Position numbers and translations under genes: made by a program
Part shown: in pieces, positions 20,644-57,025 of the stretch
Layout: every line of letters begins with the position of its first letter
Numbering within the stretch: the stretch's first letter is position 1
Assembly (NCBI GenBank): GCA_038065075.1
Contig: JBBTRQ010000019.1
Span: 9,456 to 73,455 of the forward strand
Source: Patescibacteria group bacterium
GTDB lineage: Bacteria > Patescibacteriota > Patescibacteriia > UBA9934 > GWF2-40-263
DNA length: 64,000 nucleotides
Direction of reading: 5' to 3'
The notes under the pieces: model-generated
Told to the model about the DNA's origin: nothing
Databases searched by the model: none
Seen by the model: only the letters and a program-made list of their open reading frames with translations

Positions 20644-23477
<2,834 letters not shown>

Positions 23478-23606
23478 ACAGGACGATTATACCAAAAAAC
23501 GAGGCAGAGTGCCTCGTTTTGACGCCCCTTAAAGGGGCTGTGAAGTAGATTATTCACAGGGCCTTTCCTGCCCGCCATAGCTTCAGCGACGGCGGGAGGC
23601 CCGTTT

Positions 23607-24520: not shown

Positions 24521-25625
24521 CCGCCACGCTCATGCGCGGGCCGATTTCTTCCAGGACGCTTGCGAGATCTTGTGGAAAGACGACGCGTGCCCAGGGGTCG
24601 CCACGGTAGACGTTGAGGTTGAGCGTCTGCGCCAAATACTCCGTCACGCGCGGCAAGTGAGATGAGCCACCCGTCAAAATAATCTTCTCCACCTTCTTGA
24701 TCAGAGCGAGCTCCATGCCTGCGTACAACTGGAACGCAAATCGAATCTCGTTGATGAGCGGAAGCATGAGCACCTCTAACACCTTTGGAAGATCGCCCGT
24801 GAGTCCCGAGCCTGTCGCTGAAGCGGTGCCCAGGTCGCGCTTGATACGCTCGGCATCCTCTTCTGACAAAGACATCTGTTGCATCACCGCGCGCGTGACG
24901 GTGTCCCCTCCCAACTGGATCGAACGCGACACAAACGGAATCCCCTTCTCCACGATCATGATCGTCGTGCGCTGTGAGCCGATATCAATGACCATGATGG
25001 CCCCTTTGTCTTTTCCAACGAGCGCGCGAACAAGCGCGAGCGATTCCGTGTCGATGGCTTGAAGGTTGAGCTTCGCCGCTTTAAAAATTTCGATGTACTT
25101 CTGGATGAACGACTTGGCCGACCCCGTGACCATCGCGCGAAACTGCTTTTGCTTCCCCTTTTCCATCTCCCCACCCGCCATAGCTTTAGCGACGGCGGGT
25201 TCCCCCTTTTTTCCTTTCTCGGGTTTCTTTTCCTCGTCCAAATACGTCGTCTGGATAATCATCTCGGAAAGGGGCAGTGGCGCGAGCTTCCCAACCTCTG
25301 CGTCCACGGCAGCCTGTTTCGCCCGCGCGTCTTTTCCGTCGGTGAGTGAAAGAATCGTCGCAAACACTCGCGAGGTCGGAAGCGCGGCCATCGCGGAAGT
25401 GGATTTGGTTCCGGCTTCCTTGCACACGCGCGCGAGCAACTCGCCGGTTCGCTTAGGCTGGTCAAACAAAGACTCTCCTGCTTCTTCAACGGGAATCTCC
25501 GCGTATCCGTACGTCATCAAAATGGGCCGACCCTTCTTTGCCTCAAACTCGACGACCTTAATACTGCTAGCGCCGATGTCGACCCCCAAAAAACTTTTTG
25601 GCTGTTTCTTTCCGAACAAGCCCAT
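24492..25625 (-). CDS. pilM: Type IV pilus assembly ATPase-fold protein PilM (actin/FtsA-like)
   Basis: 'FLGVDIGASSIKVVEF' N-terminal actin-fold motif. Contains an in-frame repeat-family-B insertion (GEPAVAKAMAGGE). Confidence 0.75.
   Translation of the reverse strand: MGLFGKKQPKSFLGVDIGASSIKVVEFEAKKGRPILMTYGYAEIPVEEAGESLFDQPKRTGELLARVCKEAGTKSTSAMAALPTSRVFATILSLTDGKDARAKQAAVDAEVGKLAPLPLSEMIIQTTYLDEEKKPEKGKKGEPAVAKAMAGGEMEKGKQKQFRAMVTGSAKSFIQKYIEIFKAAKLNLQAIDTESLALVRALVGKDKGAIMVIDIGSQRTTIMIVEKGIPFVSRSIQLGGDTVTRAVMQQMSLSEEDAERIKRDLGTASATGSGLTGDLPKVLEVLMLPLINEIRFAFQLYAGMELALIKKVEKIILTGGSSHLPRVTEYLAQTLNLNVYRGDPWARVVFPQDLASVLEEIGPRMSVAVGLAMREIE
25174..25199. repeat. Repeat family B copy, inside pilM and in frame
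   Basis: CCCGCCATAGCTTTAGCGACGGCGGG. Family consensus is CCCGCCGTCGCT-N-AGCTATGGCGGG. Other copies at 5140-5167, 16122-16148, 23571-23596, 52585-52610, 53247-53278, 54923-54952. Confidence 0.65.
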
Positions 25626-26052: not shown

Positions 26053-26065
26053 AAATTGCCCCCCG

Positions 26066-26141
26066 TCATTGCGAGGAGGCCATAGGCCGACGAAGCAATC
26101 CTCAAAGATTGCTTCGCTCCCTTCGGTCGCTCGCAATGACG
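26066..26141. repeat. Repeat family C copy (~75-bp long imperfect palindrome)
   Basis: GTCATTGCGAGGAG...GACGAAGCAATC...GATTGCTTCGC...CTCGCAATGAC. Other copies at 52522-52585, 63137-63204 (in frame in uvrA), and a partial copy at 49094-49139. Confidence 0.65.
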
Positions 26142-26144
26142 AGA

Positions 26145-27944
26145 CTAGTGAGTTTGTAAATCTACAATACGAATTTGGAGCTGTCGGTTGCCGTTCCATT
26201 CGTTCACCTGAATCTCGAAGGCGACGTCGATCTGTGCGCCGTACGTCAACTTCGTGATCCAGCTCCCAAATCCAAATCCAATCGCCTCCACCAGTTTACC
26301 AGTTGCCGAAGCTAAACGCAGTTTAAGATGTCCACCGTCACGACCGACCGTTGAAAACGCGGCCACGCTCACGTTGCGCGAGACGAACACCGGAACAGGA
26401 TTCCCCGTTCCAAACGGATGAAAGGCCTGAAGCTCGTCGAACAGCTCCCAGGTAATTTTCTCGAGCGGAATCTCTGCGTCGATCGTGAGTCGCGGTTCGA
26501 GATCCTCTGGCTTCAGTTCTCTCGCGGCAAATTCTTTCATCATCTCCATGGCCTTGTGGAATCGCTCCTCGCCGCTCACGGAAAAACCGCACGCCTGCGG
26601 ATGGCCGCCGAACTTGTCCAAAAACTCGCTGGCATAGTGAAGGGCCTTGGTTACATCAAACCCCTCGATACTCCGACCTGAACCGACAAACTTCTCCCCG
26701 TCTTGTCCCACAACCAATACCGGTCGGTGATACTCGTTCATCAATTTTCCGGCGACGAGACCGACGAGCCCCGCGCCCCAACCTTCCTGATACGCAACGA
26801 TCAACGATTCGCCGATGGCCTCGCCAATCTGCTTCTTTGCCTGCTCAAACATGAGCTGTGAGGCCTTCTGCCGCTCGACGTTGAGTTCATGAAGTCTCAT
26901 CGCCAGCGCTGTCGCGCGCACGTCATCCTCTTCGACGAGCAGATCAAGCGCTTCGCTGGCATGTGTCATGCGACCAGCGGCGTTCAAACGTGGACCAATC
27001 TGGAACCCGATAGAAACCGTGTCGAGCTCCCCAAGTTTTGAACCGGACACGTCGAGGAGTTTCTGAATACCTTTGCGGCGTGTCTTGTTGAGGACGAGGA
27101 GTCCATACTTCTCAAGCACGCGATTCTCACCACGCAGGGGCATCACGTCCGTCACGGTCGCGATCGCCACCAGATCGAGGAGCCATTTCTCATGACCATC
27201 AGGAAATGCCCCTCCACGATTTCGAGCCTCGACAATAAGAGCGCTCGCCAGCTTGAACGCCACGCCCGTTCCGCACAGATGCTTGTTGGGAAACGTTTCG
27301 CCTGGCACCAACGGGTGGATGAGAATGGCGGAAGTCGGGAGCTGTGCGGGCATGGTGTGATGATCACAAACGATCGTGTCGATCCCCAGCGTGGCGCCGC
27401 GGTCGATGGCCGGCTTGTTCGAAATCCCGCAGTCGACCGTGATGACCAGCTCTGTGTTCTCGTGTTCGTTCAAATGCTCGATCGTCTCAATAGACATCCC
27501 ATATCCTTCTTTCTCGCGGTGCGGGATGTACGTCGTGATCTTGGTTTCGTCAAAAGAAGAGATTGCTTCGGTCCCGCCACGCTTCGCTCGCGGCTTCGGC
27601 GTACTCCCTCGCAATGACACAGAACGTAACGCCCGGCAAATCTCCCGCAGGGTCGTGACGAGCACGGCCGTCCCGCACGTGCCGTCCGCATCGTAGTCGC
27701 CGTGAATCGTGATGACCTCAGCCCGCTCGAGAGCTTGGAACACACGCCCCACGGCCCGTTTCATGTGTAAAAAAAGCTCGGGACCAAACGTGTCCCGGCT
27801 CCAATCTGGTCCCAAAAAAATATCCATCTCTCCTTGCGTCTTGAGACCCCGATTCCAGAGCAACTGCAAAATAACGTCGTCGAGTTCAGGAAACTGACGT
27901 TGCACGTCTTGTGAGACTGGTTCCTGAACCATCCAACGTTTCAT
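26145..27944 (-). CDS. recJ: Single-stranded-DNA-specific exonuclease RecJ
   Basis: DHH motif (ITIHGDYDADGTCGTAV) and DHHA1 domain. An extra ~25-aa segment (STPKPRAKRGGTEAISS) resembles a repeat-family-D insertion. Confidence 0.85.
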   Translation of the reverse strand: MKRWMVQEPVSQDVQRQFPELDDVILQLLWNRGLKTQGEMDIFLGPDWSRDTFGPELFLHMKRAVGRVFQALERAEVITIHGDYDADGTCGTAVLVTTLREICRALRSVSLRGSTPKPRAKRGGTEAISSFDETKITTYIPHREKEGYGMSIETIEHLNEHENTELVITVDCGISNKPAIDRGATLGIDTIVCDHHTMPAQLPTSAILIHPLVPGETFPNKHLCGTGVAFKLASALIVEARNRGGAFPDGHEKWLLDLVAIATVTDVMPLRGENRVLEKYGLLVLNKTRRKGIQKLLDVSGSKLGELDTVSIGFQIGPRLNAAGRMTHASEALDLLVEEDDVRATALAMRLHELNVERQKASQLMFEQAKKQIGEAIGESLIVAYQEGWGAGLVGLVAGKLMNEYHRPVLVVGQDGEKFVGSGRSIEGFDVTKALHYASEFLDKFGGHPQACGFSVSGEERFHKAMEMMKEFAARELKPEDLEPRLTIDAEIPLEKITWELFDELQAFHPFGTGNPVPVFVSRNVSVAAFSTVGRDGGHLKLRLASATGKLVEAIGFGFGSWITKLTYGAQIDVAFEIQVNEWNGNRQLQIRIVDLQTH

Positions 27945-29812
27945 GAATCTCGTTTCAGTACTTTTAGGTAGGCGTCTGTTGGAATGCTGACACGCCCTTT
28001 TCCAAGCGCGGCCATCTTTGCCTTTCCTTTTTTCTGTTTCTCGAGAAGCTTGCGCTTACGCGTCACGTCGCCGCCATAGAGGCCGGCTGTCACGTCTTTA
28101 CGCATCGCGGAAATCCGTTCCGAGGCGACGACTTTACCTCCCACGCTCGCTTGCAGTTTGATAACGAAATTCTGACGCGGGATCGTGTCCTTCAACACCG
28201 CGGTGATACGCCGCCCGGCTCGATCTGCTTCGTCGCGGTAGACCAGGGTGGAAAAAGCGTCCACCGGTTCTTCCGCAACCAAGATGTCCATCTTCACCAC
28301 GTCGGCCGGTCGGTAATCAATCACCTCGTAGTTGAGCGACGCGTAGCCAGCCGTGATGCTTTTGAGTTTATCGTAAAAATCCACGATGATCATGGCAAGC
28401 GGAATCTGATAGTGGAGAATGGCACGATCGCCAGCGAGATACTCGGTTGTCTCATACAACCCCCGTCGTTCCTGCATGAGCTGCATAATGGCGCCGATGT
28501 AGGAACTGGGACTGACAATATCGACCTTCACCCATGGTTCACGAATGACCTCGATGTGCGAGGGGTCGGGAAGCTCAAGCGGACTCTTGATCACGATAGT
28601 CTCACCGCGGCGCAGAACCACCTCATACGCCACAGACGGCACTGTCACGACCAGACTCATGTTGAACTCACGCTCAAGTCGCTCTTTGAGAATCTCCAGG
28701 TGCAACATGCCCAGCAGTCCACAACGGAATCCAAAACCCAGCGCCGGCGAGTGCTCGGACTCATAGACCAACGCGGAGTCGTTTAATTTGAGACGCTCAA
28801 TCGCTTCGCGCAAACGATGGAAATCATCACCCTCCTGCGGAAAGACACCGGCGAACACCATCGGTTTGACTTCCTTATAGCCAGGAAGCGCAGGCGGGAG
28901 ATGATCAGCAGGAACGGTAATGGTGTCACCAACTCGACAACCGCTGAGATCCTTGAGTCCGGTGACGATGTACCCAATTTGTCCAGCCTCTAACGTATCA
29001 GCAGATTTGAGAGCCCCCGGCGTGATCGCCCCGGTCTCAAGCACCTGAATGTCGGCGCCGGTGGCGATCATCTTTACCTTTTTGCCTTTGTGCAGGGCGC
29101 CGTCGACGACACGGATATATGCCATCACTCCTCGGTAGTCGTCGTAGAACGAATCAAAAATGAGGGCACGCGTAGGTGCGGCAGGGTCGCCAGACGGAGG
29201 TGGAAACCGTTGGACGATCGCATCAAGCAATTCCATCACCCCCTGTCCCGTCTTTCCACTCACCGCCAAAATCTCCTCGGGCTTACACCCGATAAGGGAC
29301 ACGATCTCAGCCGTGCGCGCTGGGATATCCGCCGCCGGCAGATCAATCTTGTTGAGGACGGGAATGATCTCGAGGTTCTCCTCAAGTGCGAGATACAAGT
29401 TTCCAATCGTCTGCGCCTGCACGCCCTGTGTGGCGTCGACGAGCAAGATCGCTCCCTCCACGGCCGCAAGAGACCGACTCACTTCGTAATTGAAGTCAAC
29501 GTGTCCCGGTGTGTCGATGAGGTTCAGGATGTATGTATCGGGGGGTACTTGCCGATCCAGATGGGATCCCTCGACTCGCTTCGCTCGCTCGGGATGACCC
29601 CCGCCAGAATACTTATAACCCATTCTGGCAGGGGTCAGCTTAATCGTGATCCCGCGCTCGCGTTCGATGTCCATGGAGTCGAGGATTTGCGCCTTCATGT
29701 TGCGTTTGTCTACCGCGCCGGTCAATTCCAAAAGCCGATCCGCGAGGGTCGACTTTCCATGATCGATGTGGGCGATGATACAGAAGTTTCGAATGTGCGC
29801 TTGATCGGCCAT
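27941..29812 (-). CDS. lepA: Elongation factor 4 (LepA)
   Basis: G-domain motifs AHIDHGKST and DTPGHVDF plus a LepA-specific C-terminus. Carries an in-frame repeat-family-D insertion (SGGGHPERAKRVEGSHLDRQVPP) between G1 and G3. Confidence 0.9.
   Translation of the reverse strand: MADQAHIRNFCIIAHIDHGKSTLADRLLELTGAVDKRNMKAQILDSMDIERERGITIKLTPARMGYKYSGGGHPERAKRVEGSHLDRQVPPDTYILNLIDTPGHVDFNYEVSRSLAAVEGAILLVDATQGVQAQTIGNLYLALEENLEIIPVLNKIDLPAADIPARTAEIVSLIGCKPEEILAVSGKTGQGVMELLDAIVQRFPPPSGDPAAPTRALIFDSFYDDYRGVMAYIRVVDGALHKGKKVKMIATGADIQVLETGAITPGALKSADTLEAGQIGYIVTGLKDLSGCRVGDTITVPADHLPPALPGYKEVKPMVFAGVFPQEGDDFHRLREAIERLKLNDSALVYESEHSPALGFGFRCGLLGMLHLEILKERLEREFNMSLVVTVPSVAYEVVLRRGETIVIKSPLELPDPSHIEVIREPWVKVDIVSPSSYIGAIMQLMQERRGLYETTEYLAGDRAILHYQIPLAMIIVDFYDKLKSITAGYASLNYEVIDYRPADVVKMDILVAEEPVDAFSTLVYRDEADRAGRRITAVLKDTIPRQNFVIKLQASVGGKVVASERISAMRKDVTAGLYGGDVTRKRKLLEKQKKGKAKMAALGKGRVSIPTDAYLKVLKRDS
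29564..29600. repeat. Repeat family D copy, inside lepA and in frame
   Basis: GGGATCCCTCGACTCGCTTCGCTCGCTCGGGATGACC. Other copies at 18733-18770, 44121-44180, 44251-44298, 60914-60962, with diverged copies in dus (40447-40490), rimK-like (41645-41682) and recJ. Confidence 0.65.
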
Positions 29813-30292: not shown

Positions 30293-30320
30293 TTGACGAA
30301 TGTTCCGGACGGCGTTTGTC

Positions 30321-31352
30321 CTACCAGATCGCCGCGGCCAGTGCCTCGGGGGTGAGGATGGTGTTGCGTCCCAAGTCCGGACAACCGAAGTCCAAGAGAC
30401 AGGGGGCATAGCAGTCGGACGATCTTGCCGGACACTGTGTGCGGTTCTTGGAAACCAGCAGTCCCTTGCCATCATCCACGGGGATGACCGCGTCGACCAC
30501 TTCCCAGAAGTCCGTAAGCGCAAGCTCCAGCTGACCATCCGGCCAGCTCATGGCGTGCAGGCAGCCGCCTCCGCGGGTGCCATCCACGACCAAGGTGTCC
30601 CACTGCCCCACGAACAGGGTGTTTCCTGTGAAGATAAGTGCGCGAATCTCTCCGCGTGAGTGAGCGGTGAGCTCCGGCCTGTGGCGTGCCGCTCCAGTCC
30701 TCACGTCCACCAGGTGGATCTGTCCGCCTTGTGTCCCACACAGAAGCTCTCCCTTAGGCGTGAAGGTGAGAGCCCAGATGCTGGAGTCCAGCCGGAGGCT
30801 ATGGAGAGTATGGAATCTGCCATCTCCCTGCCTTGAGAGGATCTTCAGGTATCCATCCCACATCCCCACCGCCAGGATGGAACCGTCTGAAGAGAATGCC
30901 AAGCGCAAGATCTGACCCTCAAACCCCTCGAGGCACCGGAAGGTATCGCTCCCGGGATATCTCAAGAAGAGCACATTCTCGTCACCCCCTGTGGCAAGGA
31001 TGCCGTCCTGGGACAGGGCGAGGTGGTTGACAGACCAACTGGAGCTCACAATCGGTTCACCTCTTTGGCACAGATACTCCACATCCCACTCACGCAGGGT
31101 GTGGTCGTGGCTGCACGAGTAGAGGGTGCGGCCATCAGACGAGAGCGCGAGGCCGGCTACACTGTCGGTATGCCCTTCAAGGACACTACAAACTTCCCCG
31201 GTCTCCACACTCCACAGATGGATACGAGGATCCGCGTTGAATCCCCCGCCCGCCAGTGTCTTCTCGTCCTGGGACAGAGCCAGGCACCAGATCCAGCTAT
31301 TGTGCCCCCTGAACAATCGCCGAGTGGTCGGCTCGGAAACGATGCGGGTCAT
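30321..31352 (-). CDS. WD40 beta-propeller protein (7 repeats), paralog 1, with a conserved Cys-containing C-terminal tail
   Basis: Repeated GH...WD units (GHTDSVAGLALSSDGRTLYSCSHDHTLREWDV etc.). Start set at MTRIVSEPTTRRLF, preceded by AAAGGAGACCACC. C-terminal tail is YAPCLLDFGCPDLGRNTILTPEALAAAIW. Confidence 0.7.
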   Translation of the reverse strand: MTRIVSEPTTRRLFRGHNSWIWCLALSQDEKTLAGGGFNADPRIHLWSVETGEVCSVLEGHTDSVAGLALSSDGRTLYSCSHDHTLREWDVEYLCQRGEPIVSSSWSVNHLALSQDGILATGGDENVLFLRYPGSDTFRCLEGFEGQILRLAFSSDGSILAVGMWDGYLKILSRQGDGRFHTLHSLRLDSSIWALTFTPKGELLCGTQGGQIHLVDVRTGAARHRPELTAHSRGEIRALIFTGNTLFVGQWDTLVVDGTRGGGCLHAMSWPDGQLELALTDFWEVVDAVIPVDDGKGLLVSKNRTQCPARSSDCYAPCLLDFGCPDLGRNTILTPEALAAAIW

Positions 31353-31478
31353 GGTGGTCTCCTTTGAATGAACGTCTTGACCATGAAAGGTCGATGGCTC
31401 GCAGGGGCGAGCGTCAACCTCTCGTGGAAAAGGCCTAACGAGTTGCGTGTCGCTAGGCATGTGGTGGTAGTGCCCGTT
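31353..31478 (-). repeat. Conserved terminator/leader module, copy 1
   Basis: On the minus strand: terminator hairpin GCCTAGCGA..TCGTTAGGCC + TTTTCC, then hairpin GCTCGCCCCTGCGAGC, then AAAGGAGACCACC-ATG. Near-identical copies at 32511-32645, 35310-35457, 36490-36590. Confidence 0.7.
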
Positions 31479-32510
31479 CTACCACCTCGCCGCGGCTCGT
31501 GCCTCGGGAGTGAGGATGGTGTGGCGTCCCAGATCCGGACAACCGAAGTCCAAGAGACAGGGGGCGTAGCGGTCGGGCGACTCGGCCGGACTTTGCGTGC
31601 GGTTCTTGGAGACCAGCAGACTCTGGCCACCATTCACGGGGATGACCGCGTTAACCCATCCCCAGAAGTCCGTAAGTGCAAGCTCCAGCGCACCATCCGG
31701 CCAGCTCACGGCGTGCAGGCGACCGCTTCCGCGGGTGCCATCAGCGACCGAGGTGTCACACTGCCCCACGAGCAGGGAGTTTCGCGTGAACGCGAGCGCG
31801 TGGATCTCTCCGCGTGTGTGAACGGTGAGCTCCGGCCTGTGGCGTGACACTCCCGTCCTCACGTCCACCAGATGGATCTGTCCGCCCTCTGTCCCACACA
31901 GAAGCTCTCCCTCCGGCGTGAAGGTGAGAGCCCAGATGATCGAGTCCAGCTGGAGGCTGTGGAGAGTCTGGAATCTGCAATCTTCCTGCCTTGAGAGGAT
32001 CTTCAGGTGTCCATCCCACATCCCCACCGCCAGGATGGAACCGTCTGAAGAGAGCGCCAAGCGCAAGATCTGACCCTCAAACCTCTCGATACACCGGAAG
32101 GTATGGCTCCCGGGGTTTCTCAAGAAGAGCGTCTTCTCATCACCCCCTGTGGCAAGAGTGCCGTCCTGGGACAGGGCGAGGTGGTTGAAAGGCTGCTTCG
32201 AGCGCAAAGTCGGTTCACCTCTTTGACGCAGATGCTCCATGTCCCACTCGCGCAGAGTGTTGTCGTGGCTGCACGAGTAGAGGGTCTTGTCATCAGGCGA
32301 GAACGCGAGGCCGGTGACACTGTCTGTGTGCCCTTCAAGGACACCACGAACTTCTCCGGTCTCCACGCTCCATAGGTGGATCCGAGGATCTGCTCCTGAA
32401 CCCCCGCCCGCCAGTGTCTTCCCGTCTTGGGACAGAGCAAGGCGCCAGATCCAGCCGAGGTGTCCATTGAACAATCGCCGAGTGGTTGGCTCGGAGATGG
32501 TACGGGTCAT
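31479..32510 (-). CDS. WD40 beta-propeller protein, paralog 2
   Basis: Same architecture and C-terminal tail as paralog 1 (MTRTISEPTTRRLFNGH...). Confidence 0.7.
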   Translation of the reverse strand: MTRTISEPTTRRLFNGHLGWIWRLALSQDGKTLAGGGSGADPRIHLWSVETGEVRGVLEGHTDSVTGLAFSPDDKTLYSCSHDNTLREWDMEHLRQRGEPTLRSKQPFNHLALSQDGTLATGGDEKTLFLRNPGSHTFRCIERFEGQILRLALSSDGSILAVGMWDGHLKILSRQEDCRFQTLHSLQLDSIIWALTFTPEGELLCGTEGGQIHLVDVRTGVSRHRPELTVHTRGEIHALAFTRNSLLVGQCDTSVADGTRGSGRLHAVSWPDGALELALTDFWGWVNAVIPVNGGQSLLVSKNRTQSPAESPDRYAPCLLDFGCPDLGRHTILTPEARAAARW

Positions 32511-32645
32511 GATGGTCTCCTTTGAATGAACGTCTTGACCATGAAAGGTCGATGACTCGCCAGGGGCGAGCGTCAACCTCTCGTGGAAAAGGCCTAGCGA
32601 GAGCGTGTCGCTAGGCGTGCGGCTTGTGAGCCACGTGGTTGGTGA
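32511..32645 (-). repeat. Conserved terminator/leader module, copy 2
   Basis: See copy 1. Confidence 0.7.
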
Positions 32646-35309
32646 CTAATTCGTCACCGATGGCTTAACCGGCGGGATGACCTGCATACGGATGTCAGAC
32701 TCCTCTCCGTGCTGCTTGAGCACCTCCAGCGCCCACTCCACCTCGTCCCGCGCGTTGGCGGGCAGAAGCGCTCTGGAGCGCGCGTTGGCTACGGCCAACA
32801 GGGTCATGCGGGCGATTTGCGTTTGCTGTGCCTGCGGCATGTAATCGCCGATGGCCCAGAGCAGATCATCACGATTCACGCCAGGCTCCCCGTGCGTGTC
32901 GGCGTGCCGGACGATCACCTCGATGTCCGCGCCGGAGAGGCGCTTGGTCTTGTCGGCGAACTCCGTGAAGTCCGTGATGTCCGTGGTGAACCCGCCGCGC
33001 CGAATCATCACGCGGAACAAGGCTTCACGGGTCGTGGCATCGGGCATGAGCACCGGGATGACTTCGTCGCTTCGACCGGCACGCAGCATGGCCGCGTCGA
33101 TGAGATCCGGTCGGTTGCTGGCCGTCATGTAGAACACGCGGCCTCGGATGGTCGGATCGGCGAGGAAGGTCATCCACGCCTGACGCGTCCGGTTGGACAC
33201 ACCCGAGTCGCCGCTGAATCCATCGCGTCCGCCGTCGTTCTGATCGATCTCGTCCTGGAATACCACGCACGGCGCCATCAACCTTACGGCCTCCAGCTGG
33301 TCGTGCACGTTGCGCTCCGATGAGCCAACCCACATCTGTTGAGTGTGGCGAGGGATCAGCAGCAAGAGACCGGAGGCGTGCGCCAACGCCGTCGCCAGCG
33401 CACTCTTGCCGGTACCGGGCGGTCCCAGCAGTGCACACCCCATGGGCACTCGCGAGAGGTCGCCCGTGCGCATGCGCTCGCAGACGTCCAGGAGAAACGT
33501 CTTGACGCCGTCGAGTCCGGCGATGCCGTCAAACCCGTAGGGTGGGTCGATCACCTCAAACAGATGCCCGAAGCGCTCGTTGAGGATGACCAGCCTGTGT
33601 GCGACCACGTCCTTGTGGGACAGCGGCTGGTTGCCGGCCTGCGCGCGACGAAGCAGACGGCGCAGATCGCGGTAGCCCATGTTGCCGGTCAGACGAGCCA
33701 GCTCGACAACCCCCATGGTGGGCGTGTCGAACAACGATTCGTCGTCACGGGTTGCCGTGAGCCGTCGATGCTGCTCGCGCAAGTCGGTTAGTGTCTCGCT
33801 GGAGAGGTTCGGAAGACGAGCCTTGCTGTCTCGCAGTGTCTGCGCCAACTGCTGCGCGATCCGTGTGTGGTCCTCTTGCAGCTCCTGCAACCGACTCACA
33901 GCCGCTGTCGTCAGCCGATCGAGCTCGCTTTGCGCCTCTCGGATCGACGCCGGCTCGCTCGAGCACAGCGCCTCCAAGTTCCGTTGCAGCTCCTCCAGAC
34001 ACTCTGTTGCCTGCTTTCGAGCAAACGGCTTCACCGTTAGGCAAGCGACGTTGTCGGCATTGGCCACGCAGATGTCGGCGTCGTTTGCCTTGAAGCGCAT
34101 CACCAGCAATCCGCCCTCAAAGAAGAATTGGGCGGGGATGCTGGAGTTACGCGAGTCGGTGACCGGCTTGTTCGGGTTCGCCCCGCTGGCGAACTGCACT
34201 CCGCTACGTCTCGTCGCGCTCTTGAGCACAGTGAAGCGCTGTGCCCCACCACGCGAGTCCTGGACACTGACCATATCGCCGGGCGCCAAATTGGCCCAGC
34301 GAGCCTCGTCAAGAGACGCGTCATCGGTCAGGAGAGGATCGCTCCGCAGCTGTGCGCCAAGGGCATCGATCTGCGCTTGGAGATTCGCCAACTGCCCGGC
34401 ATTATCCGCGTTGAGGGACTGCCGCAGAGCCGTAAGCGAGGATCGGCACCGCTTCACGGCCGCCAGATGCCCCTTGTACTCACCGTCTTGCTTGAGGGAC
34501 TTGCGTAGGGCGCTGTGCCGTTCGTCTGCCGTCCGAGCCGCAACGATGTCGTCATTCGCTCGCGCTTGCAGTACTTGGATCTCCTCGGCGATCTGCATCT
34601 CCAGCTCTTGCTGGCGCTGCAGGCCACTGTCCGTCCTACACACCCGGCGCAAGTAAGCCTCACGCTCCGCCTGAAGGGGGGGATCCACCTTGATCAAGCA
34701 GATGGGCGAGCTGCTGTCGCGCAGCATCTGGGGCAACAAGCCGGAAGATCTGGCGCTCATGAGCACCAAATGGCCGACGATCCCAAAGGCATCGTCTTCC
34801 GCCATTCGCCGGATGAGCAACGGCGTACGCGACGACATGGCGCCGGCAGGGGAACTGTCGTCCAGACAGTAGGTGTCGACATTGGGCAGAATCACCGTGA
34901 AGCGAACCGAATCGCCGACGGCGTGCCGCAGCACGTTCATGATCTGCGACAAAGCCCCGGTGGGATCCGTCGTCTGCTCGACCCTCGACGCCACCTGCGC
35001 TCGCGCGCGGGCGATGGGATCGTCAGCTTCACCGGCAGACTGCCGGTTCTTCTTAAGCAGCTCCCCGAACGCCTCATGATCTTCGTCTCTGGGGAAGCTC
35101 AAGCCCAGAGCCGGATCAAACACGACGAAACGACGATCGGGCTCCTGCCTGACCAACGCGTCGAGTACCAGCCGGTGCCAAGGCAACAGCGCCATGGATG
35201 ACGCATCGGTCGTATTGGGGAAGCCGTCTGCGACGTTCCCGTCAAACAGGAAGCAGAAATGGCACCTGGCGCGCTCCTGCTCGAAGGTTCTCATCCAAGA
35301 TGGAGTCAT
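32646..35309 (-). CDS. Large (≈887 aa) protein: N-terminal unknown region + extensive coiled coils + C-terminal classical AAA ATPase domain
   Basis: Walker A GPPGTGKS, Walker B VVFQDEID, second region of homology RPDLIDAAMLRAGRSDEVIPV. Heptad-rich Q/L/A segments lie upstream. Start set at MTPSWMRTFEQ behind GGAGAAGAG. Confidence 0.7.
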   Translation of the reverse strand: MTPSWMRTFEQERARCHFCFLFDGNVADGFPNTTDASSMALLPWHRLVLDALVRQEPDRRFVVFDPALGLSFPRDEDHEAFGELLKKNRQSAGEADDPIARARAQVASRVEQTTDPTGALSQIMNVLRHAVGDSVRFTVILPNVDTYCLDDSSPAGAMSSRTPLLIRRMAEDDAFGIVGHLVLMSARSSGLLPQMLRDSSSPICLIKVDPPLQAEREAYLRRVCRTDSGLQRQQELEMQIAEEIQVLQARANDDIVAARTADERHSALRKSLKQDGEYKGHLAAVKRCRSSLTALRQSLNADNAGQLANLQAQIDALGAQLRSDPLLTDDASLDEARWANLAPGDMVSVQDSRGGAQRFTVLKSATRRSGVQFASGANPNKPVTDSRNSSIPAQFFFEGGLLVMRFKANDADICVANADNVACLTVKPFARKQATECLEELQRNLEALCSSEPASIREAQSELDRLTTAAVSRLQELQEDHTRIAQQLAQTLRDSKARLPNLSSETLTDLREQHRRLTATRDDESLFDTPTMGVVELARLTGNMGYRDLRRLLRRAQAGNQPLSHKDVVAHRLVILNERFGHLFEVIDPPYGFDGIAGLDGVKTFLLDVCERMRTGDLSRVPMGCALLGPPGTGKSALATALAHASGLLLLIPRHTQQMWVGSSERNVHDQLEAVRLMAPCVVFQDEIDQNDGGRDGFSGDSGVSNRTRQAWMTFLADPTIRGRVFYMTASNRPDLIDAAMLRAGRSDEVIPVLMPDATTREALFRVMIRRGGFTTDITDFTEFADKTKRLSGADIEVIVRHADTHGEPGVNRDDLLWAIGDYMPQAQQTQIARMTLLAVANARSRALLPANARDEVEWALEVLKQHGEESDIRMQVIPPVKPSVTN

Positions 35310-35457
35310 GACTCTTCTCCTCGTGTGGTGTGGGTTGGAAATTGAATGAACGTCTTGACCATGAGGGGTCGATGGCTCGCAGGGGCGAGCGTCAACCTCT
35401 CGTGGAAAAGGCCTAGCGAGCAGCGTGTCGCTAGGCATGCGGTGGGTAGTGCCCGTT
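35310..35457 (-). repeat. Conserved terminator/leader module, copy 3
   Basis: See copy 1. Confidence 0.65.
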
Positions 35458-36489
35458 CTACCACACCGCCGCGGCCAGTGCCTCAGGGGTGAGGATGGTG
35501 TTGCGCCCCAGACCCGGATAGCCAAAGTCCAAGAGACAGGGGGCGTAGCGGTCGGACGATCTTGCCGGACACTCCATGCGGTTCTTGGAAACCAGCAGTC
35601 CCTTGCCACCATTCACAGGGATGATCACGTCGACCCCTCCCCAGAAGTCCGTAGGGGCAAGCTCCAGCTGACCATCCGGCCAGCTCATGGCGTGCAGGCG
35701 GCCAAGTCCGCGGGTTCCATCCGTAATCGAAGTATCCTGCTGCCCCACAAGCAGAGCGTTTCGCGTGAACGCAAGCGCGCAGATCTCTCCACGTGTGCGA
35801 ACGGTGAGCTCTGGCCTGTGGCGTGACTCTCCCGTCCTCACGTCCACCAGGTGAATCTGCCCGCCTCCTGTCCCGCATAGGAGCTCTCCATCCGGCGTGA
35901 AGGTGAGCACCCAGATGCTTGAATCCAGCCGGAAGCGGTGGAGAGTCTGGAAGCTGCCATCTTCTTGCCTTGAGAGGACTCGCAGATGGCCGTAAGCCCT
36001 CCCCACCGCCAGGGTGGAACCGTCTGCAGAGAATGCCAGGCACCGGATCCAATTCTCGAACCCCTCGATGCGCTGGACGGTTTTGCTCCCGGGACGTCTC
36101 AAGAAGACAACGCCATCGCCACCTCCTGTGGCGAGTGTGCCGTCCTGGGACAGGGCGAGGTGACTGAGAGTACCCCTCGAACTCACAATCGGTTCACCTC
36201 TTTGGCGCAGATGCTTCACATCCCACTCACGCAGGGTGTGGTCGTAGCTGCACGAGTAGAGGGTGCGGCCATCATGCGAGAACGCGAGGCCGGTGACACT
36301 GTCTGTGTGCCCTTCAAGGACACCACGAACTTCCCCGGTCTCCACGCTCCATAGGTGGATACGAGGATCAAATCCTGAACCCCCGCCTGCCAGTGTCTTC
36401 CCGTCTGGGGACAGAGCAAGGCACCAGATCCAGCTGTTGTGTCCCCTGAACAATCGCCGAGTGGTTGGCTCGGAAACGGTACGGGTCAT
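35458..36489 (-). CDS. WD40 beta-propeller protein, paralog 3
   Basis: MTRTVSEPTTRRLFRGHNSWIWCLALSPDGKTLAGGG... with the same C-terminal tail. Confidence 0.7.
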   Translation of the reverse strand: MTRTVSEPTTRRLFRGHNSWIWCLALSPDGKTLAGGGSGFDPRIHLWSVETGEVRGVLEGHTDSVTGLAFSHDGRTLYSCSYDHTLREWDVKHLRQRGEPIVSSRGTLSHLALSQDGTLATGGGDGVVFLRRPGSKTVQRIEGFENWIRCLAFSADGSTLAVGRAYGHLRVLSRQEDGSFQTLHRFRLDSSIWVLTFTPDGELLCGTGGGQIHLVDVRTGESRHRPELTVRTRGEICALAFTRNALLVGQQDTSITDGTRGLGRLHAMSWPDGQLELAPTDFWGGVDVIIPVNGGKGLLVSKNRMECPARSSDRYAPCLLDFGYPGLGRNTILTPEALAAAVW

Positions 36490-36590
36490 GGTGGTCTCCT
36501 TTGAATGAACGTCTTGACCATGAAAGGTCAACGGCTCACCAGGGGCGAGCGTCGACCTCTCGTGGAAAAGGCCTAGCGAGTTGCGTGTCG
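36490..36590 (-). repeat. Conserved terminator/leader module, copy 4
   Basis: See copy 1. Confidence 0.65.
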
Positions 36591-40261: not shown

Positions 40262-40338
40262 ATGCGCCTAGTATACTTGATAAAAATCGATTTTTCGAGT
40301 AGCCTCGATCCGTTACCTGTAGTGAGCAACGTCGAACT

Positions 40339-41445
40339 ATGAAGCTTGACTGGTCACAACTCCCCCGACCCATCATCGCGCTCTCCCCCATGGCCGACAT
40401 GACGGACAGTGCGTTTTGTCGTGTTGTTCGAGCCATCGAACAACACGACCCTGAGCGATCCCGAGCTTGTCGAGGGGGAGTCGAAGGGTGCAGGCAGGTT
40501 GTTCTCTTCCGCGAGATGGTCTCCGCTGAGGCAGTCGTGCGCGGCAACGACAAGACACTCAACATGACCGACATCCACCCTGACGAGCGGCCGCTCGTGC
40601 AACAGCTCTTTGGAAGCGACCCGCAGACGATGGCAGAGGCGGCGCGTATCATCCAAGAGCAACACCACCCTGAGGGCTTCGACGTAAACATGGGATGTCC
40701 CGTGTACAAGATCGTACACAACTTCAACGGCGCGGCGCTCATGAAGGAACCAGAGCTCGCGACGAAGATCATCCAAGCGATGAAAGCCTCTACGACCGTT
40801 CCACTCTCGATCAAGATCCGTACCGGCTGGGATGACCCTCGTGAGTGCATCGAGTTTTCAAAAGTCGTGGAAGCGGCAGGCGCCGACCTCATCACCCTGC
40901 ACGGTCGAACAAAGTCCCAAGGTTACTCGGGACAGTCGGATTGGAACCTGATTGGCGAGGTGAAGAAGGGCCTTTCGATTCCCCTCTTGGCCAACGGCGA
41001 TATCCACACACCTCCATTGACTTTGAAAGCGCTGGAAACAACGGGAGCCGACGGCGTCTTGATTGCGCGAGGAGCGCTTGGCAACCCGTGGATTTTTTCT
41101 CAGATCGAGGATCTTCTCGGAGGCCGGGAGCCCAAGGCGGTGACACTTGAGGAACGCGTGCGGGTTGTGAAACAACATCTCGTGTATCACATCGAGCAAT
41201 ACGGGGACCCCTCGACGGGGCTCGGGGCGGGACGCGGCGTGGTCACATTCCGAAAACATCTCTCGTGGTACTTCCGCGGGATCAATGGCGCCAAGCCGTA
41301 TAAGGACCGATTACACACGGCCACGACGAGCAAAGAGATCAACATGATTCTGGGCGAGATGTTACTCGAGGGACTCGTGGACGGACTCTCGACTCGTGAC
41401 GCCCTGCATCCTCAAGCGGCAGAACGCGCCTTCATGAAGAAATAA
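40339..41445 (+). CDS. dus: tRNA-dihydrouridine synthase
   Basis: 'ALSPMADMTDSAFCRVV' FMN-binding TIM-barrel N-terminus and length. Carries a diverged repeat-family-D insertion (HDPERSRACRGGVEG). Preceded by the conserved leader. Confidence 0.75.
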   Translation: MKLDWSQLPRPIIALSPMADMTDSAFCRVVRAIEQHDPERSRACRGGVEGCRQVVLFREMVSAEAVVRGNDKTLNMTDIHPDERPLVQQLFGSDPQTMAEAARIIQEQHHPEGFDVNMGCPVYKIVHNFNGAALMKEPELATKIIQAMKASTTVPLSIKIRTGWDDPRECIEFSKVVEAAGADLITLHGRTKSQGYSGQSDWNLIGEVKKGLSIPLLANGDIHTPPLTLKALETTGADGVLIARGALGNPWIFSQIEDLLGGREPKAVTLEERVRVVKQHLVYHIEQYGDPSTGLGAGRGVVTFRKHLSWYFRGINGAKPYKDRLHTATTSKEINMILGEMLLEGLVDGLSTRDALHPQAAERAFMKK

Positions 41446-41470
41446 TACTTGTAGTGAGCAACGTCGAACT

Positions 41471-42421
41471 ATGACCATCGGCATCCTCATTTTCTCCGAG
41501 CCACGCGACGAAGTGTACACAGGCGTTGACCGTCTTGTTTCAGCTGGACAAGCGGCAGGCCACACCGTCGTCAAACTCTACGAGCCGCACCTCTCTTTCC
41601 TGTGTCATCCCGTCTTCGACTCCGAGGTCGCTCAGACTCGAGGAGAGCGAGCAGAGCGAGCCGAGGGATCTCCTCACGTCGCGACAATCCTTCACGAGGG
41701 CCAACCGCTTCCAAAACTCGATATCATCATCTCGCGACCGAACTTCGTCGAGGAACCGAGCCTGCGCACCTATGCCGTCCAGATGTTGGAGCGGGCTGGC
41801 TACCGAGTTATCAACGGCCGCCCTGGGTACACCTGGGCAAAAAATAAGCTCACGCAACACGTGTTATTTGCACAGCATGACCTCCCCTGTCCGCGTTGGG
41901 GAATCGCCCGTAGACCGGAAGATACCGTCGCGATCGCGAAGACCATCGGATTCCCGGTGATCGTAAAAGTGGCGTTTGGCACGCACGGCAAGGGCGTGTT
42001 CCTGGCCAAGGACGAGGAGTCTCTCTGGCCGATTGTGGACTATCTGGGTATCCGTGATGGGAACCCTATGATCGTTGAAGAGTTTATCGCGGAGGCTCGG
42101 TCGAGTGACCTGCGAGCATTCGTCATTGGCGGTGAGGTCGTCGGGGCGATGCAGAGAACAGCCGCGGTCGGAGACACGCGAGCAAACACCTCCAGCGGCG
42201 GAACAGGATCGCCGATTGAACTCACACAAGCGGAACAAGCTCTGGCGATCCGCGCCGCCAAGGTGTTTGACCTTGAAATCGCTGGCGTGGATCTCATTCG
42301 TTCAAAACAGGGTCCTCTCCTGCTCGAAGTAAATGGAAACCCCGGCTTCCGAGAACTCGAAAAGGTCACGAGCCTCGACATCGCTCACAAGATCATTGAC
42401 TACGCGGTCGGTCAGTCGTAA
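41471..42421 (+). CDS. ATP-grasp enzyme, RimK-like (alpha-L-glutamate ligase family)
   Basis: ATP-grasp motifs (FPVIVKVAFGTHGKGVFL ... LEVNGNPGF). Carries a diverged repeat-family-D insertion (GERAERAEGS). Preceded by the conserved leader. Confidence 0.65.
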   Translation: MTIGILIFSEPRDEVYTGVDRLVSAGQAAGHTVVKLYEPHLSFLCHPVFDSEVAQTRGERAERAEGSPHVATILHEGQPLPKLDIIISRPNFVEEPSLRTYAVQMLERAGYRVINGRPGYTWAKNKLTQHVLFAQHDLPCPRWGIARRPEDTVAIAKTIGFPVIVKVAFGTHGKGVFLAKDEESLWPIVDYLGIRDGNPMIVEEFIAEARSSDLRAFVIGGEVVGAMQRTAAVGDTRANTSSGGTGSPIELTQAEQALAIRAAKVFDLEIAGVDLIRSKQGPLLLEVNGNPGFRELEKVTSLDIAHKIIDYAVGQS

Positions 42422-43770: not shown

Positions 43771-45333
43771 TTACACAACACTCCCACCAAACTCCTGCAG
43801 AAGCTCGCCGACGGTATCGTCTGCCTGCACACCGATCTTTTTCTGAATCGCCTTCACTCGCAAACGCTTCCCAAGAACTTGTTCGAAGACCCCTTCAATC
43901 AGTTTACGATTTTTGTCTTGATTCACCGCCTCCACGTAGAGACCATACTCAAACCCGAGTTCCACCCGCTCGCCCTCGACGCCAGAAACTTCACATCCCT
44001 GCATCATCATGGGCAGTGACGCGTTACACGACTTGATCTGTTCGTACACTTCCGGCCATTTGTTCTTCACCTCCTCGAGGCTGATAACGGGGACGGAGTC
44101 GAAGACGGTGTCGACGGCCTCGAGATCCCTCGACTCCCCTTCGACTCGCTTCGCTCGCTCAGGGTCGCTCGGGATGACACATACTGGTTTGGGCTGCGAC
44201 TCCACTCGGCTTGAAACAACCTCCTGCTTCTTAAAATCCTGTGGCTCGACTCGAGATCCCTCGGCTCGGTCGTCGGACGACCTCGCTCGGGATGACACAG
44301 AGGAAGAGACCCCACACACGTTGATAATGGCGAGCTCAACCGGAAGTTGCGGGATGTTCTCGCTGTATCGAGCCCGTTGTGCCTCTAGCAGGTGCTCGAT
44401 GGCAGACTGGAGAAACCCGACGTCAAACGTCCCGGTCCCCCCAACAGACTCAAGCAACCGATCCCGCAACCACGAAATCGTCTCGGAAACAAAGTTTCGG
44501 AGGTCGACACCTTGTTCGAGAGACTCGTTGAGTTGCGTGATGGCCTGCGCGGCGTTGTGTGACTGAAGGGACGAAACAAACTGTTCAATCAAAACGGTTT
44601 GCGTGGCTGGGAGAACCAACGACGCCTCCTTCATGCCGATTTCCTTATCCCCCAATGAGAGGACCTGTCCCAGAAGACTCTCGGCATCGCGAGCGCATCC
44701 ACCGCTGTGTCGCGCAATCTCTCGTAGAACCGCCTCATCGACCTTCACGCCTTCCTCTTTGACGATCCCTTTCATGCGCGCCACAAGCCCATCAACAGAA
44801 ATACGCTTGAAGTCGAATCGCTGACAGCGACTGATAATGGTCTCGGGAACCTTGTGGATCTCGGTCGTTGCCAGGATAAACACCACATGCGCGGGCGGCT
44901 CCTCGAGCGTTTTCAACAGCGCGTTGAACGCCGACGTCGACAGCATGTGTACCTCGTCGATGATATACACTTTCTTCTTCAATACGTTGGGAGCAAATCG
45001 AACCGAGTCGATGATGGTCTCCCTCACGTTCTCCACGCCGGTATTGGACGCCGCATCAATTTCGTACACATCAAGCGCCTGACCACTCGCGATCGACACG
45101 CAGGCCTCACACGTATTACACGGCTCGTTCTTCTTGGGCGAAAGACAATTCACCAGCTTGGCGATGAGCCGAGCCGTTGTTGTTTTTCCCACACCTCGCG
45201 GACCCGTAAACAAATAGGCGTGAGCGATGGAGCCCGTCGCCTGTTGGTTCTGGATGGTCCGAACCACATGCTCCTGCCCGCTCACCTCCTGAAATGTTTT
45301 GGGTCGATAGGTGCGATAAATCGCCTGTCCCAT
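43771..45333 (-). CDS. dnaX: DNA polymerase III subunit gamma/tau
   Basis: Walker A GPRGVGKTT, DEVHML, Zn-binding CNTCEAC. The linker carries two in-frame family-D repeat copies (PERAKRVEGESRDLE ...). Confidence 0.85.
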   Translation of the reverse strand: MGQAIYRTYRPKTFQEVSGQEHVVRTIQNQQATGSIAHAYLFTGPRGVGKTTTARLIAKLVNCLSPKKNEPCNTCEACVSIASGQALDVYEIDAASNTGVENVRETIIDSVRFAPNVLKKKVYIIDEVHMLSTSAFNALLKTLEEPPAHVVFILATTEIHKVPETIISRCQRFDFKRISVDGLVARMKGIVKEEGVKVDEAVLREIARHSGGCARDAESLLGQVLSLGDKEIGMKEASLVLPATQTVLIEQFVSSLQSHNAAQAITQLNESLEQGVDLRNFVSETISWLRDRLLESVGGTGTFDVGFLQSAIEHLLEAQRARYSENIPQLPVELAIINVCGVSSSVSSRARSSDDRAEGSRVEPQDFKKQEVVSSRVESQPKPVCVIPSDPERAKRVEGESRDLEAVDTVFDSVPVISLEEVKNKWPEVYEQIKSCNASLPMMMQGCEVSGVEGERVELGFEYGLYVEAVNQDKNRKLIEGVFEQVLGKRLRVKAIQKKIGVQADDTVGELLQEFGGSVV

Positions 45334-45957: not shown

Positions 45958-45966
45958 CCTCCGGTT

Positions 45967-46000
45967 CCCCTCCTTTTCAAGGAGGGGCTAGGGGTGGTTA
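45967..46000. repeat. Repeat family A copy in the 5' leader of 45339-45957
   Basis: CCCCTCCTTTTCAAGGAGGGGCTAGGGGTGGTTA. Confidence 0.65.
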
Positions 46001-46005
46001 AAATT

Positions 46006-49085: not shown

Positions 49086-49251
49086 ACTGTTTGTCATTGC
49101 GAGGAGCCCTGAGCCTGTCGAAGGGCGACGAAGCAATCTCTCCTTTCTCGCATGGATAGTTTACCATATTTTCTTTGCTGGCTGGGCATAAAAAGAAACA
49201 CCCCGCGAGACAGCGAGCCATCCGTTAGGATGTTTCTCGCCGACCGCGGGG

Positions 49252-52502: not shown

Positions 52503-52646
52503 ATCCTCCTAAAGGTGCCTCGTCATTGCGAGGGAGCGTAGCGACCGAAGCAATCTTTCATCGAAGGATTGCTTCGCTGGCGCTCCCGCCGTCGCTAAAG
52601 CTATGGCGGGCAGGCGCAATGACACAGACTTGATGGAAACAGTATA

Positions 52647-54850: not shown

Positions 54851-55000
54851 CGCAAGGATCGATCGCTCCCTCACGCCGCCTCCACTACGCACAGGGGCGG
54901 TCTTTATTTTGCAAACCAAAAACCCGCCGTCGCTCTAGCGAGCTATGGCGGGCGGGCAGCTTACTCGGCGCAGGCTAAAGCCTGCGGCTACCTGGGAGGA

Positions 55001-56814: not shown

Positions 56815-57025
56815 AATTCGATGGGGCCGTTGCTTGGCAGGAGTTAAATAAAAGTGAGCACCACCCTGAGCGAGGTCGCAGTGCGACCGAGTCGAAGGGC
56901 AGTCCCCACTTTTCTCCACCTGGAACCATTTTATTCCACCCTGTGACACGGGTCAACCAAAGTTACCCACAGTTGTGTACTAAAAAAGCCCGGTTTCCCG
57001 GGCGAAATCTATATCTCTGGATCTC

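Follow-up and report, generated by a model that had tools for sequence, protein, structure and literature searches.

Short palindromic repeats that are inserted in reading frame are known from several bacterial systems, among them the Rickettsia palindromic elements (RPEs) and the CGTC-tagged repetitive extragenic palindromes (REPs). The repeat studied here, which we call family D, recurs in a 64,000-nt stretch of contig JBBTRQ010000019.1 (assembly GCA_038065075.1; this whole stretch is the window) from a Patescibacteria group bacterium, and one of its copies lies within lepA. Genomes of Patescibacteria, or the candidate phyla radiation (CPR), are about 1 Mb in size and are regarded as streamlined. 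RPE-1 and its relatives, credited to Ogata et al. (2000, 2002), are reportedly palindromes inserted without loss of frame into numerous genes that have nothing in common and are often essential. Family D behaves like RPE-1, being predicted to be translated in a small genome at positions that do not disturb the protein fold. RPE-1, however, is about 100–150 bp long and confined to Rickettsia, whereas family D has a different sequence, units of 33–60 nt in the window, a CPR host (Candidatus Uhrbacteria) and near-identical copies in many phyla.

Di Nocera, De Gregorio and Rocco (2013, BMC Genomics 14:522; PMC3733652) divided REPs between two superfamilies, one with a GTAG tag and one with a CGTC tag. 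According to that survey, CGTC REPs have a CGTC, TGTC or CCTC tag, a stem starting with AT and a tail of about 3 nt (consensus CCA), occur mainly as inverted dimers, and also lie in frame within genes, above all those of replication and repair (uvrA, uvrB, recB and dnaE); placement just 3ʹ of genes is also known, and the survey found no transposase flanked by the repeats. The superfamily, which includes RPE-4 and RPE-6 of R. conorii and dRS3 of Neisseria, had been reported in five phyla in 2013. Family D shares with the repeats so described the CGTC/TGTC tag, the AT-starting stem, dimers with outward tags, stem variants that coexist in one genome and hosts among replication and repair genes (here dnaX, recJ and uvrA). 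It too has a short tail, of which the first C agrees with the consensus, and no transposase was found beside the copies in the contig annotated here. The encoded peptides can be set side by side: VIPAKAGI, SFPRKRES and the reverse ...DSRFRGND in the survey, against VIPS..., SSRA... and the reverse ...PRDD here. The published peptides back-translate to GTCAT...ATC ends, as in family D, and in the dimers of R. conorii (SFLRKQES...DSRFRGND) and R. palustris the forward unit comes first and the reverse unit second, as in the dimers of the window.

We consider it probable that family D belongs to the CGTC/TGTC-tagged superfamily, as a short hairpin repeat of REP type that has been copied into spacers and into tolerated in-frame sites of proteins. 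Within that known superfamily it is best placed as a structurally elaborated member. It behaves like the Rickettsia elements and is not one of them. The kind of element is already known; what is new is the small-genome CPR host, a groundwater bacterium, the composite architecture with covarying stems and the breadth of phyla in which identical termini are found. A first-pass annotation of the window, made from the sequence alone, had described family D as RPE-like, and this label is apt, as the unit has its tag and, judging from the encoded peptides, its termini GTCAT...ATC in common with the CGTC REPs, including RPE-4 and RPE-6 (PMC3733652). The copies that it had listed were all found where it had placed them, including the inverted partner (18680..18724) of the unit at 18733.

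Anatomy and fold of the repeat unit

On the coding strand of most host genes, family D has the form (T/C)GTC-AT-CCC-GAGCGA-(variable inner hairpin)-GAGTCGA-GGG-AT-C(TC). The unit thus begins with an unpaired (T/C)GTC tag, continues with a 5-bp outer stem beginning with AT (ATCCC/GGGAT) and ends in a short tail. Inside the stem, the GAGCGA/GAGTCGA module is conserved and can pair as a tandem G·A, then GC/CG, then another tandem G·A, and it encloses a freely variable inner hairpin whose commonest form is the GCGAAGC mini-hairpin. Tandem G·A modules and the GCGAAGC mini-hairpin are unusually stable in DNA. Overall, units span 26–57 nt, the inner hairpin taking up from 0 to about 30 nt. The 12-mer GCTCGGGATGAC has five exact occurrences in the window, compared to about 0.01 expected from base composition by our own calculation. 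When a covariance model built solely from copies in other organisms was run on the window, 13 units were recovered at E < 1e-3, with the lepA copy as the top match.

Read directly, the tag was TGTC at 18680, 18733, 41605, 44124, 44255, 60876, 60917 and 27561, CGTC at 26066, 26107, 52523, 63139 and 63178, and GGTC in the lepA unit, and copies in other phyla mostly carried one of these three. The tail after the stem was a C followed by TC, CC or TG; the first C fits the published CCA consensus, and the remainder differs by lineage. A sister type, TCAT-TGC...GCA-ATC, the outer stem of which has compensating changes, was found in recJ, uvrA, the recJ-rnhA spacer and two more spacers of the window. 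The first-pass annotation had taken family D for an independent family and the recJ repeat for a diverged copy of it. The recJ repeat is of the sister type instead, and the independence was not borne out, family D being one stem variant of a cross-phylum superfamily and tied to the TGC/GCA repeats in the window.

The fold of family D is constrained, and its stem covaries. In an alignment of 37 sequences, columns 5/36 and 6/35 were an invariant A-U and U-A (AT-CCC...GGG-AT, AT-TGC...GCA-AT), and 92.8% of the cells paired, compared to 24–48% when the partners were slid by 1–3 columns. The outer triplet of this alignment had been pre-selected for complementarity, and the unbiased test is a count for which complementarity was not required beforehand: of 125 matches with a triplet other than CCC/GGG, 61 had a complementary partner. 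With shuffled partners about 10 would be expected, and the highest count that 1000 shuffles gave was 19. No fewer than eight Watson-Crick types of outer stem were present (CCC/GGG, TGC/GCA, TCC/GGA, CCT/AGG, TCT/AGA, CTC/GAG, CTT/AAG and TTC/GAA). Further, long inner segments of unrelated sequence folded markedly better than shuffles in 37 of 57 cases (z < -1.64), with a mean z of -2.2.

Five inverted dimers occur in the window, all five with the tags outward, and the palindromic fold that had been expected at the RNA level was upheld for these, which form strong hairpins (folding z -4.1 to -6.8). Units can also be nested, one lying within the loop of another (44122–44181, 52565–52624 and 41603–41672). 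The six single intragenic units (in lepA, dnaX twice, the RimK-like ligase gene, dus and recJ) all run from tag to tail on the coding strand, whichever DNA strand that is; the probability of this is about 0.03–0.05, in a small sample.

Repeat insertions in loops and linkers of host proteins

The insertions in lepA, the RimK-like ligase gene and recJ are lineage-specific and in frame. Pfam confirmed LepA, DnaX, the M23 peptidase, the RimK-type ATP-grasp ligase, RecJ and UvrA as hosts, and the LepA of the window grouped with Candidatus Uhrbacteria. Comparison of lepA with its relatives, which the first-pass annotation had proposed, bore out a lineage-specific insertion. The segment from RGITIK to DTPGH had 41 amino acids in the window and 16 ('LTPARMSYKGHTLNLI') in most of the 120 closest LepA proteins (a set that includes the one from the window), among them proteins 88–92% identical, and the family D peptide was found in none of the other 119. 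In the DNA alignment, 28 codons stood against 3 in the closest orthologue (L001), a net gain of 75 nt or 25 amino acids, rather than the approximately 20 first estimated. In an AlphaFold2 model of LepA (mean pLDDT 69), the insert lies at the tip of a β-hairpin of the G domain, between strands 61–67 and 93–100, and is predicted to be disordered (pLDDT < 50 at residues 71–88).

In the RimK-like ligase, the window has a 24-residue insert where orthologues of about 292 amino acids have the turn 'DGN', and the insert was absent from most orthologues. This copy had been regarded as merely diverged; it is a full composite unit with intact termini. The same turn carried D-type units in three lineages and other repeat families in at least three more. 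The 23-residue (69-nt) insert of RecJ was absent from both syntenic orthologues, and the neighbouring recJ-rnhA spacer was empty in L001, held a CCCCTCC...GGAGGGG pair in a second relative (L002) and holds a sister-type pair in the window. The dus copy has diverged, as first described, being a decayed unit, and L002 has a full inverted family D dimer (CHPDDQREEGSPHLEIPRRFTPRDDRG) at this site. Elsewhere in dus (41200–41230, residues about 290–298), an 8-residue insertion relative to the L002 Dus, STGLGAGR, possibly came from another repeat. In the M23 peptidase gene, what had been read as a single unit at 60914–60962 is an inverted pair.

The linker of DnaX is hypervariable among orthologues and in relatives is packed with sister-type dimers (VIAS...PRNDE), and the LepA turn of other Uhrbacteria holds other palindromic families (for example TPPSPPLVRGG, GNREQETGIREQERGQ and SKSPVPSP). 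From one member of the Uhrbacteria to another, the β-turns of LepA and of the RimK-like ligase and the linker of DnaX differ in the repeat-encoded peptides that they hold (P0002–P0120, P0122–P0240 and P0242–P0300), and judging from these sequences, repeat insertion into protein loops looks general in the Uhrbacteria lineage. The simplest reading of the re-use of sites is a high flux of insertions filtered by selection to a few tolerated positions; a true target preference may also lie behind it. These comparisons show a rapid turnover of the repeats between relatives.

Reading frames were intact in lepA, dnaX, the M23 gene, the RimK-like gene and dus, in agreement with the first observation that every intragenic copy preserves the frame. 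Such preservation is nevertheless expected from survivorship, because selection on essential genes yields it in surviving copies anyway. Five of the six frames of the unit are open, and 33% of composition-matched shuffles equal this (P = 0.33), so open frames as a designed property of the repeat were rejected.

Distribution, spread and rival explanations

For all the streamlining ascribed to CPR genomes, the window has about 18 REP-type units of one superfamily and at least two other palindromic families, and more than half of the 18 units are predicted to be translated within conserved proteins (LepA, DnaX, RecJ, UvrA, Dus, the RimK-like ligase and the M23 peptidase). They are not assembly artefacts, since an independent ENA assembly (L143) matched the window with 99.957% identity and no indels over 20,951 bp, the dnaX, RimK-like and dus copies included.

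In a scan of species-representative genomes, the exact family D termini turned up in at least 120 stretches, which represent more than 15 phyla of bacteria, compared to about 2 expected by chance by our own estimate. The stretches came from Verrucomicrobiota, Gemmatimonadota, Acidobacteriota, Planctomycetota, Omnitrophota, Clostridia, Bacteroidales, Rhodothermales, Kiritimatiellae, Victivallales, Alpha- and Gammaproteobacteria, Rickettsiales, Oligoflexales, Roizmanbacteria and Uhrbacteria, and these shared termini extend the range of CGTC-type REPs well beyond the five phyla reported in 2013. A further 17 stretches were found in IMG/VR, and BLAST with the consensus unit gave no match in plasmid or phage record collections. 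Outside the window, 110 of 146 units did not lie within long open reading frames (ORFs) by a crude test applied to other genomes. In-frame copies were present there as well: two D-type units lie in a long uvrA of a Chthoniobacterales metagenome-assembled genome (L078, 2938–7998, +), and others lie in a phage terminase large subunit gene and a neighbouring 895-aa ORF on IMG/VR contigs (L134, 9959–11593 and 6794–9481, both on the minus strand). The unit pairs on the phage contigs, 3.4–3.6 kb apart, were considered as transposon ends and rejected as such, being separate insertions in frame in these two genes. Rfam at gathering thresholds placed no family on any unit of the window, and at E ≤ 10 the dimer region 18640–18820 gave a sole, spurious match of 12 bits. 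Our literature search found no description of such in-frame palindromic repeats in Patescibacteria, and the full-text matches to sequence strings were unrelated primers.

As members of the CGTC/TGTC superfamily, family D units would spread in the form of folded single-stranded DNA through a trans-acting enzyme that is not encoded beside them, as has been proposed for REPs generally. In this Uhrbacteria genome, copies have landed in the few spacers that there are, and those surviving in genes are found where extra residues are tolerated: in lepA, dus and the RimK-like gene this is a β-hairpin turn, in dnaX a linker between domains and in the M23 gene the tether of a lipoprotein. Intragenic copies would be transcribed and translated with the host protein, probably as neutral passengers, and purifying selection would remove copies other than in-frame, surface-located ones. 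Many of the odd insertions in proteins of the CPR may represent repeat DNA and not adaptation, which annotators and structure predictors should recognise.

Several points weigh against this assignment. The four published CGTC families have stems of 8–9 bp and loops of 4–5 nt, whereas family D has a 5-bp stem, a mismatch-rich module with two Watson-Crick pairs and an inner hairpin; family D is not among the families described there, and the comparison was made through descriptions and encoded peptides. Single units, in contrast to the dimers, are weakly palindromic, with a folding z of about 0 by nearest-neighbour energy. In lepA, the unit itself measures 33–37 nt (11–12 amino acids) and the insertion 75 nt, twice the unit length, which leaves 42 nt unexplained; a decayed dimer partner and an older G-run/C-run palindrome were tried as their source, and neither fits convincingly. 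The RimK-like turn could reflect one old insertion with repeated precise loss instead of recurrent gain. The only near-identical strain, L143, showed no presence/absence difference from the window over the 20,951 bp compared, and so was uninformative on mobility. Finally, the view of this genome covered part of one contig, and a transposase may lie elsewhere.

Within that view, no transposase was found in the approximately 53 kb of annotated contig. All-against-all clustering of the ORFs within 2.5 kb of units at the 120 listed loci likewise gave no transposase, the only recurrent products being ABC/UvrA-type ATPases. Genes for small GIY-YIG nucleases adjoin D-type units at two unrelated loci (L008, 4732–5108, and L036, 1873–2256); an association was rejected, two loci being too few. 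The data sharpen the question of what moves CGTC-type repeats without answering it.

A bolder reading, which we rate as rather improbable, holds that the GTCAT-NNN-GAGCG...TCGA-N'N'N'-ATC units are one pan-bacterial, horizontally moving hairpin replicator without a transposase of its own. Some host activity that is present everywhere would copy it from folded single-stranded DNA, and it would prefer existing hairpin loops and a few re-used sites. The nested units would then result from the preference for apical loops. If this were true, the replicator would be one of the main origins of new loops and linkers that essential proteins have gained in gene-dense CPR genomes, and would provide a concrete system for how CGTC REPs and RPEs spread.

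It is unlikely that family D belongs to the type formed by REP doublets forming hairpins (REPINs) and REP-associated tyrosine transposases (RAYTs), in which the copying of GTAG-class REP dimers falls to a domesticated tyrosine (HUH) transposase, IS200-like and encoded by a single-copy gene. REPINs (Bertels and Rainey 2011; PMC3116915) likewise form inverted doublets and long hairpins in many copies and variant populations; the predominance of inverted dimers (five in the window) and the conserved hairpin fold agree with this, and RAYTs handle REPs as single-stranded hairpins (PMC3733652; PMC3116915). REPINs, however, are GTAG-type, almost wholly extragenic and tied to the single-copy RAYT gene that they flank, whereas family D has a CGTC/TGTC tag and many intragenic copies, and neither the annotated stretch (no Y1 transposase) nor the surroundings of units at the 120 loci provided a candidate; nor did the published survey find a transposase flanked by CGTC repeats.

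Selection for a function of the nucleic acid, whereby the units would be mRNA-stabilising hairpins, terminators or protein-binding sites, seems quite unlikely to account for them. Spacer copies do stand between genes of the same direction and follow the upstream gene closely, a placement also described for published REPs (PMC3733652), and the fold is conserved across phyla. But the absence of any Rfam match, the location of more than half of the window copies in coding sequence in varied frames, and the lack of a U-tract for intrinsic termination speak against such signals, as does the fast turnover of occupancy at orthologous sites, where other repeat families substitute.

[quoted passage not shown] Like family D, bacterial MITEs are small and non-autonomous, and they can sit in reading frames and add peptides (Delihas 2007, PMC2229807; Coxiella, PMC5896051; PMC10969869); family D is also short, multicopy and non-coding, and its inverted dimers resemble long terminal inverted repeats. 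Terminal inverted repeats, target-site duplications and an origin from insertion sequences characterise MITEs, and none of these is evident for family D. Single units are common and asymmetric, with the tag at one end only; comparison of filled with empty sites, made for lepA, for recJ and for the recJ-rnhA spacer, revealed no unambiguous target-site duplication; no parent insertion sequence or transposase was found near the copies; and the stem covaries while the sequence drifts, which argues for recognition of the fold and not of terminal sequences.

The units are read as HPERAKRVEGS in lepA, VSSRA... in dnaX, VIPS... in dnaX and the M23 gene and the reverse ...SLEMT in the M23 gene. As each of the three forward frames is thus used, and the reverse direction as well, and as units also stand in spacers, their conservation is at the level of DNA and not of the peptide. 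A functional protein motif HPERAKRVEGS, acquired or conserved for the activity of the peptide, is therefore hardly credible, although lepA and dnaX both encode the peptide and dus and the RimK-like gene encode strings that resemble it, for the closest orthologues do without it, the LepA insert is predicted to be disordered and the host proteins are mutually unrelated.

Copies and neighbouring features in the window

The copies of family D and of the sister type are collected in Table 1. The true start of mraZ is M46 of the long ORF, and the degenerate copy 5ʹ of this gene is therefore non-coding.

Table 1. Units of family D and of its sister type in the window, with position, strand and supporting observations
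Feature	Position	Strand	Observations
Family D unit in lepA, HPERAKRVEGS	29563..29599	-	GGTC tag; inner hairpin GCGAAGC; 55 bits, E 5e-13
Whole variable lepA loop segment, 28 codons	29528..29611	-	Empty-site alignment to L001; loop lengths in orthologues; AlphaFold2
Family D unit, left arm of inverted dimer, lgt-gatA spacer	18680..18724	+	Dimer folding z -5.8
Family D unit, right arm of the lgt-gatA spacer dimer	18733..18769	-	Covariance model, 50 bits
Family D unit in dnaX linker, read VSSRARSSDDRAEGS	44253..44297	-	Inner hairpin GGTCGTC/GACGACC; covariance-model match
Composite family D unit in dnaX linker, read VIPSDPERAKRVEGESRDL	44122..44181	-	Second D-like unit 44138–44163 nested in loop
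Family D unit in N-terminal tether of M23 peptidase, read VIPSGATEGSEVEGS	60915..60961	-	Directly after lipobox Cys; 51 bits
Inverted partner in M23 gene, CTC/GAG stem variant, reverse-read LDSSSASSESLEMT	60874..60922	+	Overlaps the 60915 unit at GATC; dimer z -4.1
Composite family D unit in RimK-like ATP-grasp ligase, read CHPVFDSEVAQTRGERAERAEGSP	41603..41672	+	In place of ancestral turn 'DGN'; orthologue alignment
Decayed family D unit in dus, read HDPERSRACRGGVEG	40447..40495	+	Covariance model, E 0.11
Degenerate D-like unit 5ʹ of mraZ	56862..56898	+	Covariance model, E 0.03; non-coding
Sister-type inverted dimer, recJ-rnhA spacer	26064..26141	.	Folding z -6.3; covariance-model match
Sister-type unit with long inner part, in frame in recJ	27559..27619	-	23-aa insert RSVSLRGSTPKPRAKRGGTEAIS
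Sister-type inverted dimer in frame in uvrA	63137..63205	.	Folding z -6.8; covariance-model match
Sister-type inverted dimer in spacer	52521..52624	.	Right unit with CCCGCC...GGCGGG repeat nested in loop
Sister-type single unit in spacer, 5ʹ of 174-aa gene	49092..49140	+	Covariance-model match

A separate palindromic family, CCCCTCCTTTTCAAGGAGGGG followed by TTGGGGGTGG, has copies at 22169–22207, 45964–46002 and 62571–62609, the third in frame in uvrA, and occurs in relatives in the LepA loop and the recJ-rnhA spacer. A hairpin family, CCCGCCGTCGCTAAAGCTATGGCGGG, lies at 23567–23598, 25174–25199, 52585–52614 and 54923–54954, and also at 16112 and 53237; one of its copies is nested within the TGC/GCA unit 52565–52624. 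A 35-nt motif (...TACTTGTAGTGAGCAACGTCGAACTATG) at 15293–15327, 40307–40341 and 41439–41473 has its exact end in the start codon of a plus-strand gene at each of the three places, dus and the RimK-like gene being among these genes, and may be a shared leader or promoter. A perfect, AT-rich inverted repeat of 29 nt with a 24-nt spacer is intergenic at 16746–16774 and 16799–16827. Rfam recognised a DUF3800-IX RNA (RF02968; 59 bits, above threshold) on the plus strand at 63705–63769, upstream of uvrA and beside a DUF3800 gene that crosses the end of the window. Three WD40 β-propeller paralogues with about 85% DNA identity (30318–31460, 31476–32576 and 35455–36531) flank an 882-aa AAA ATPase (32646–35612).

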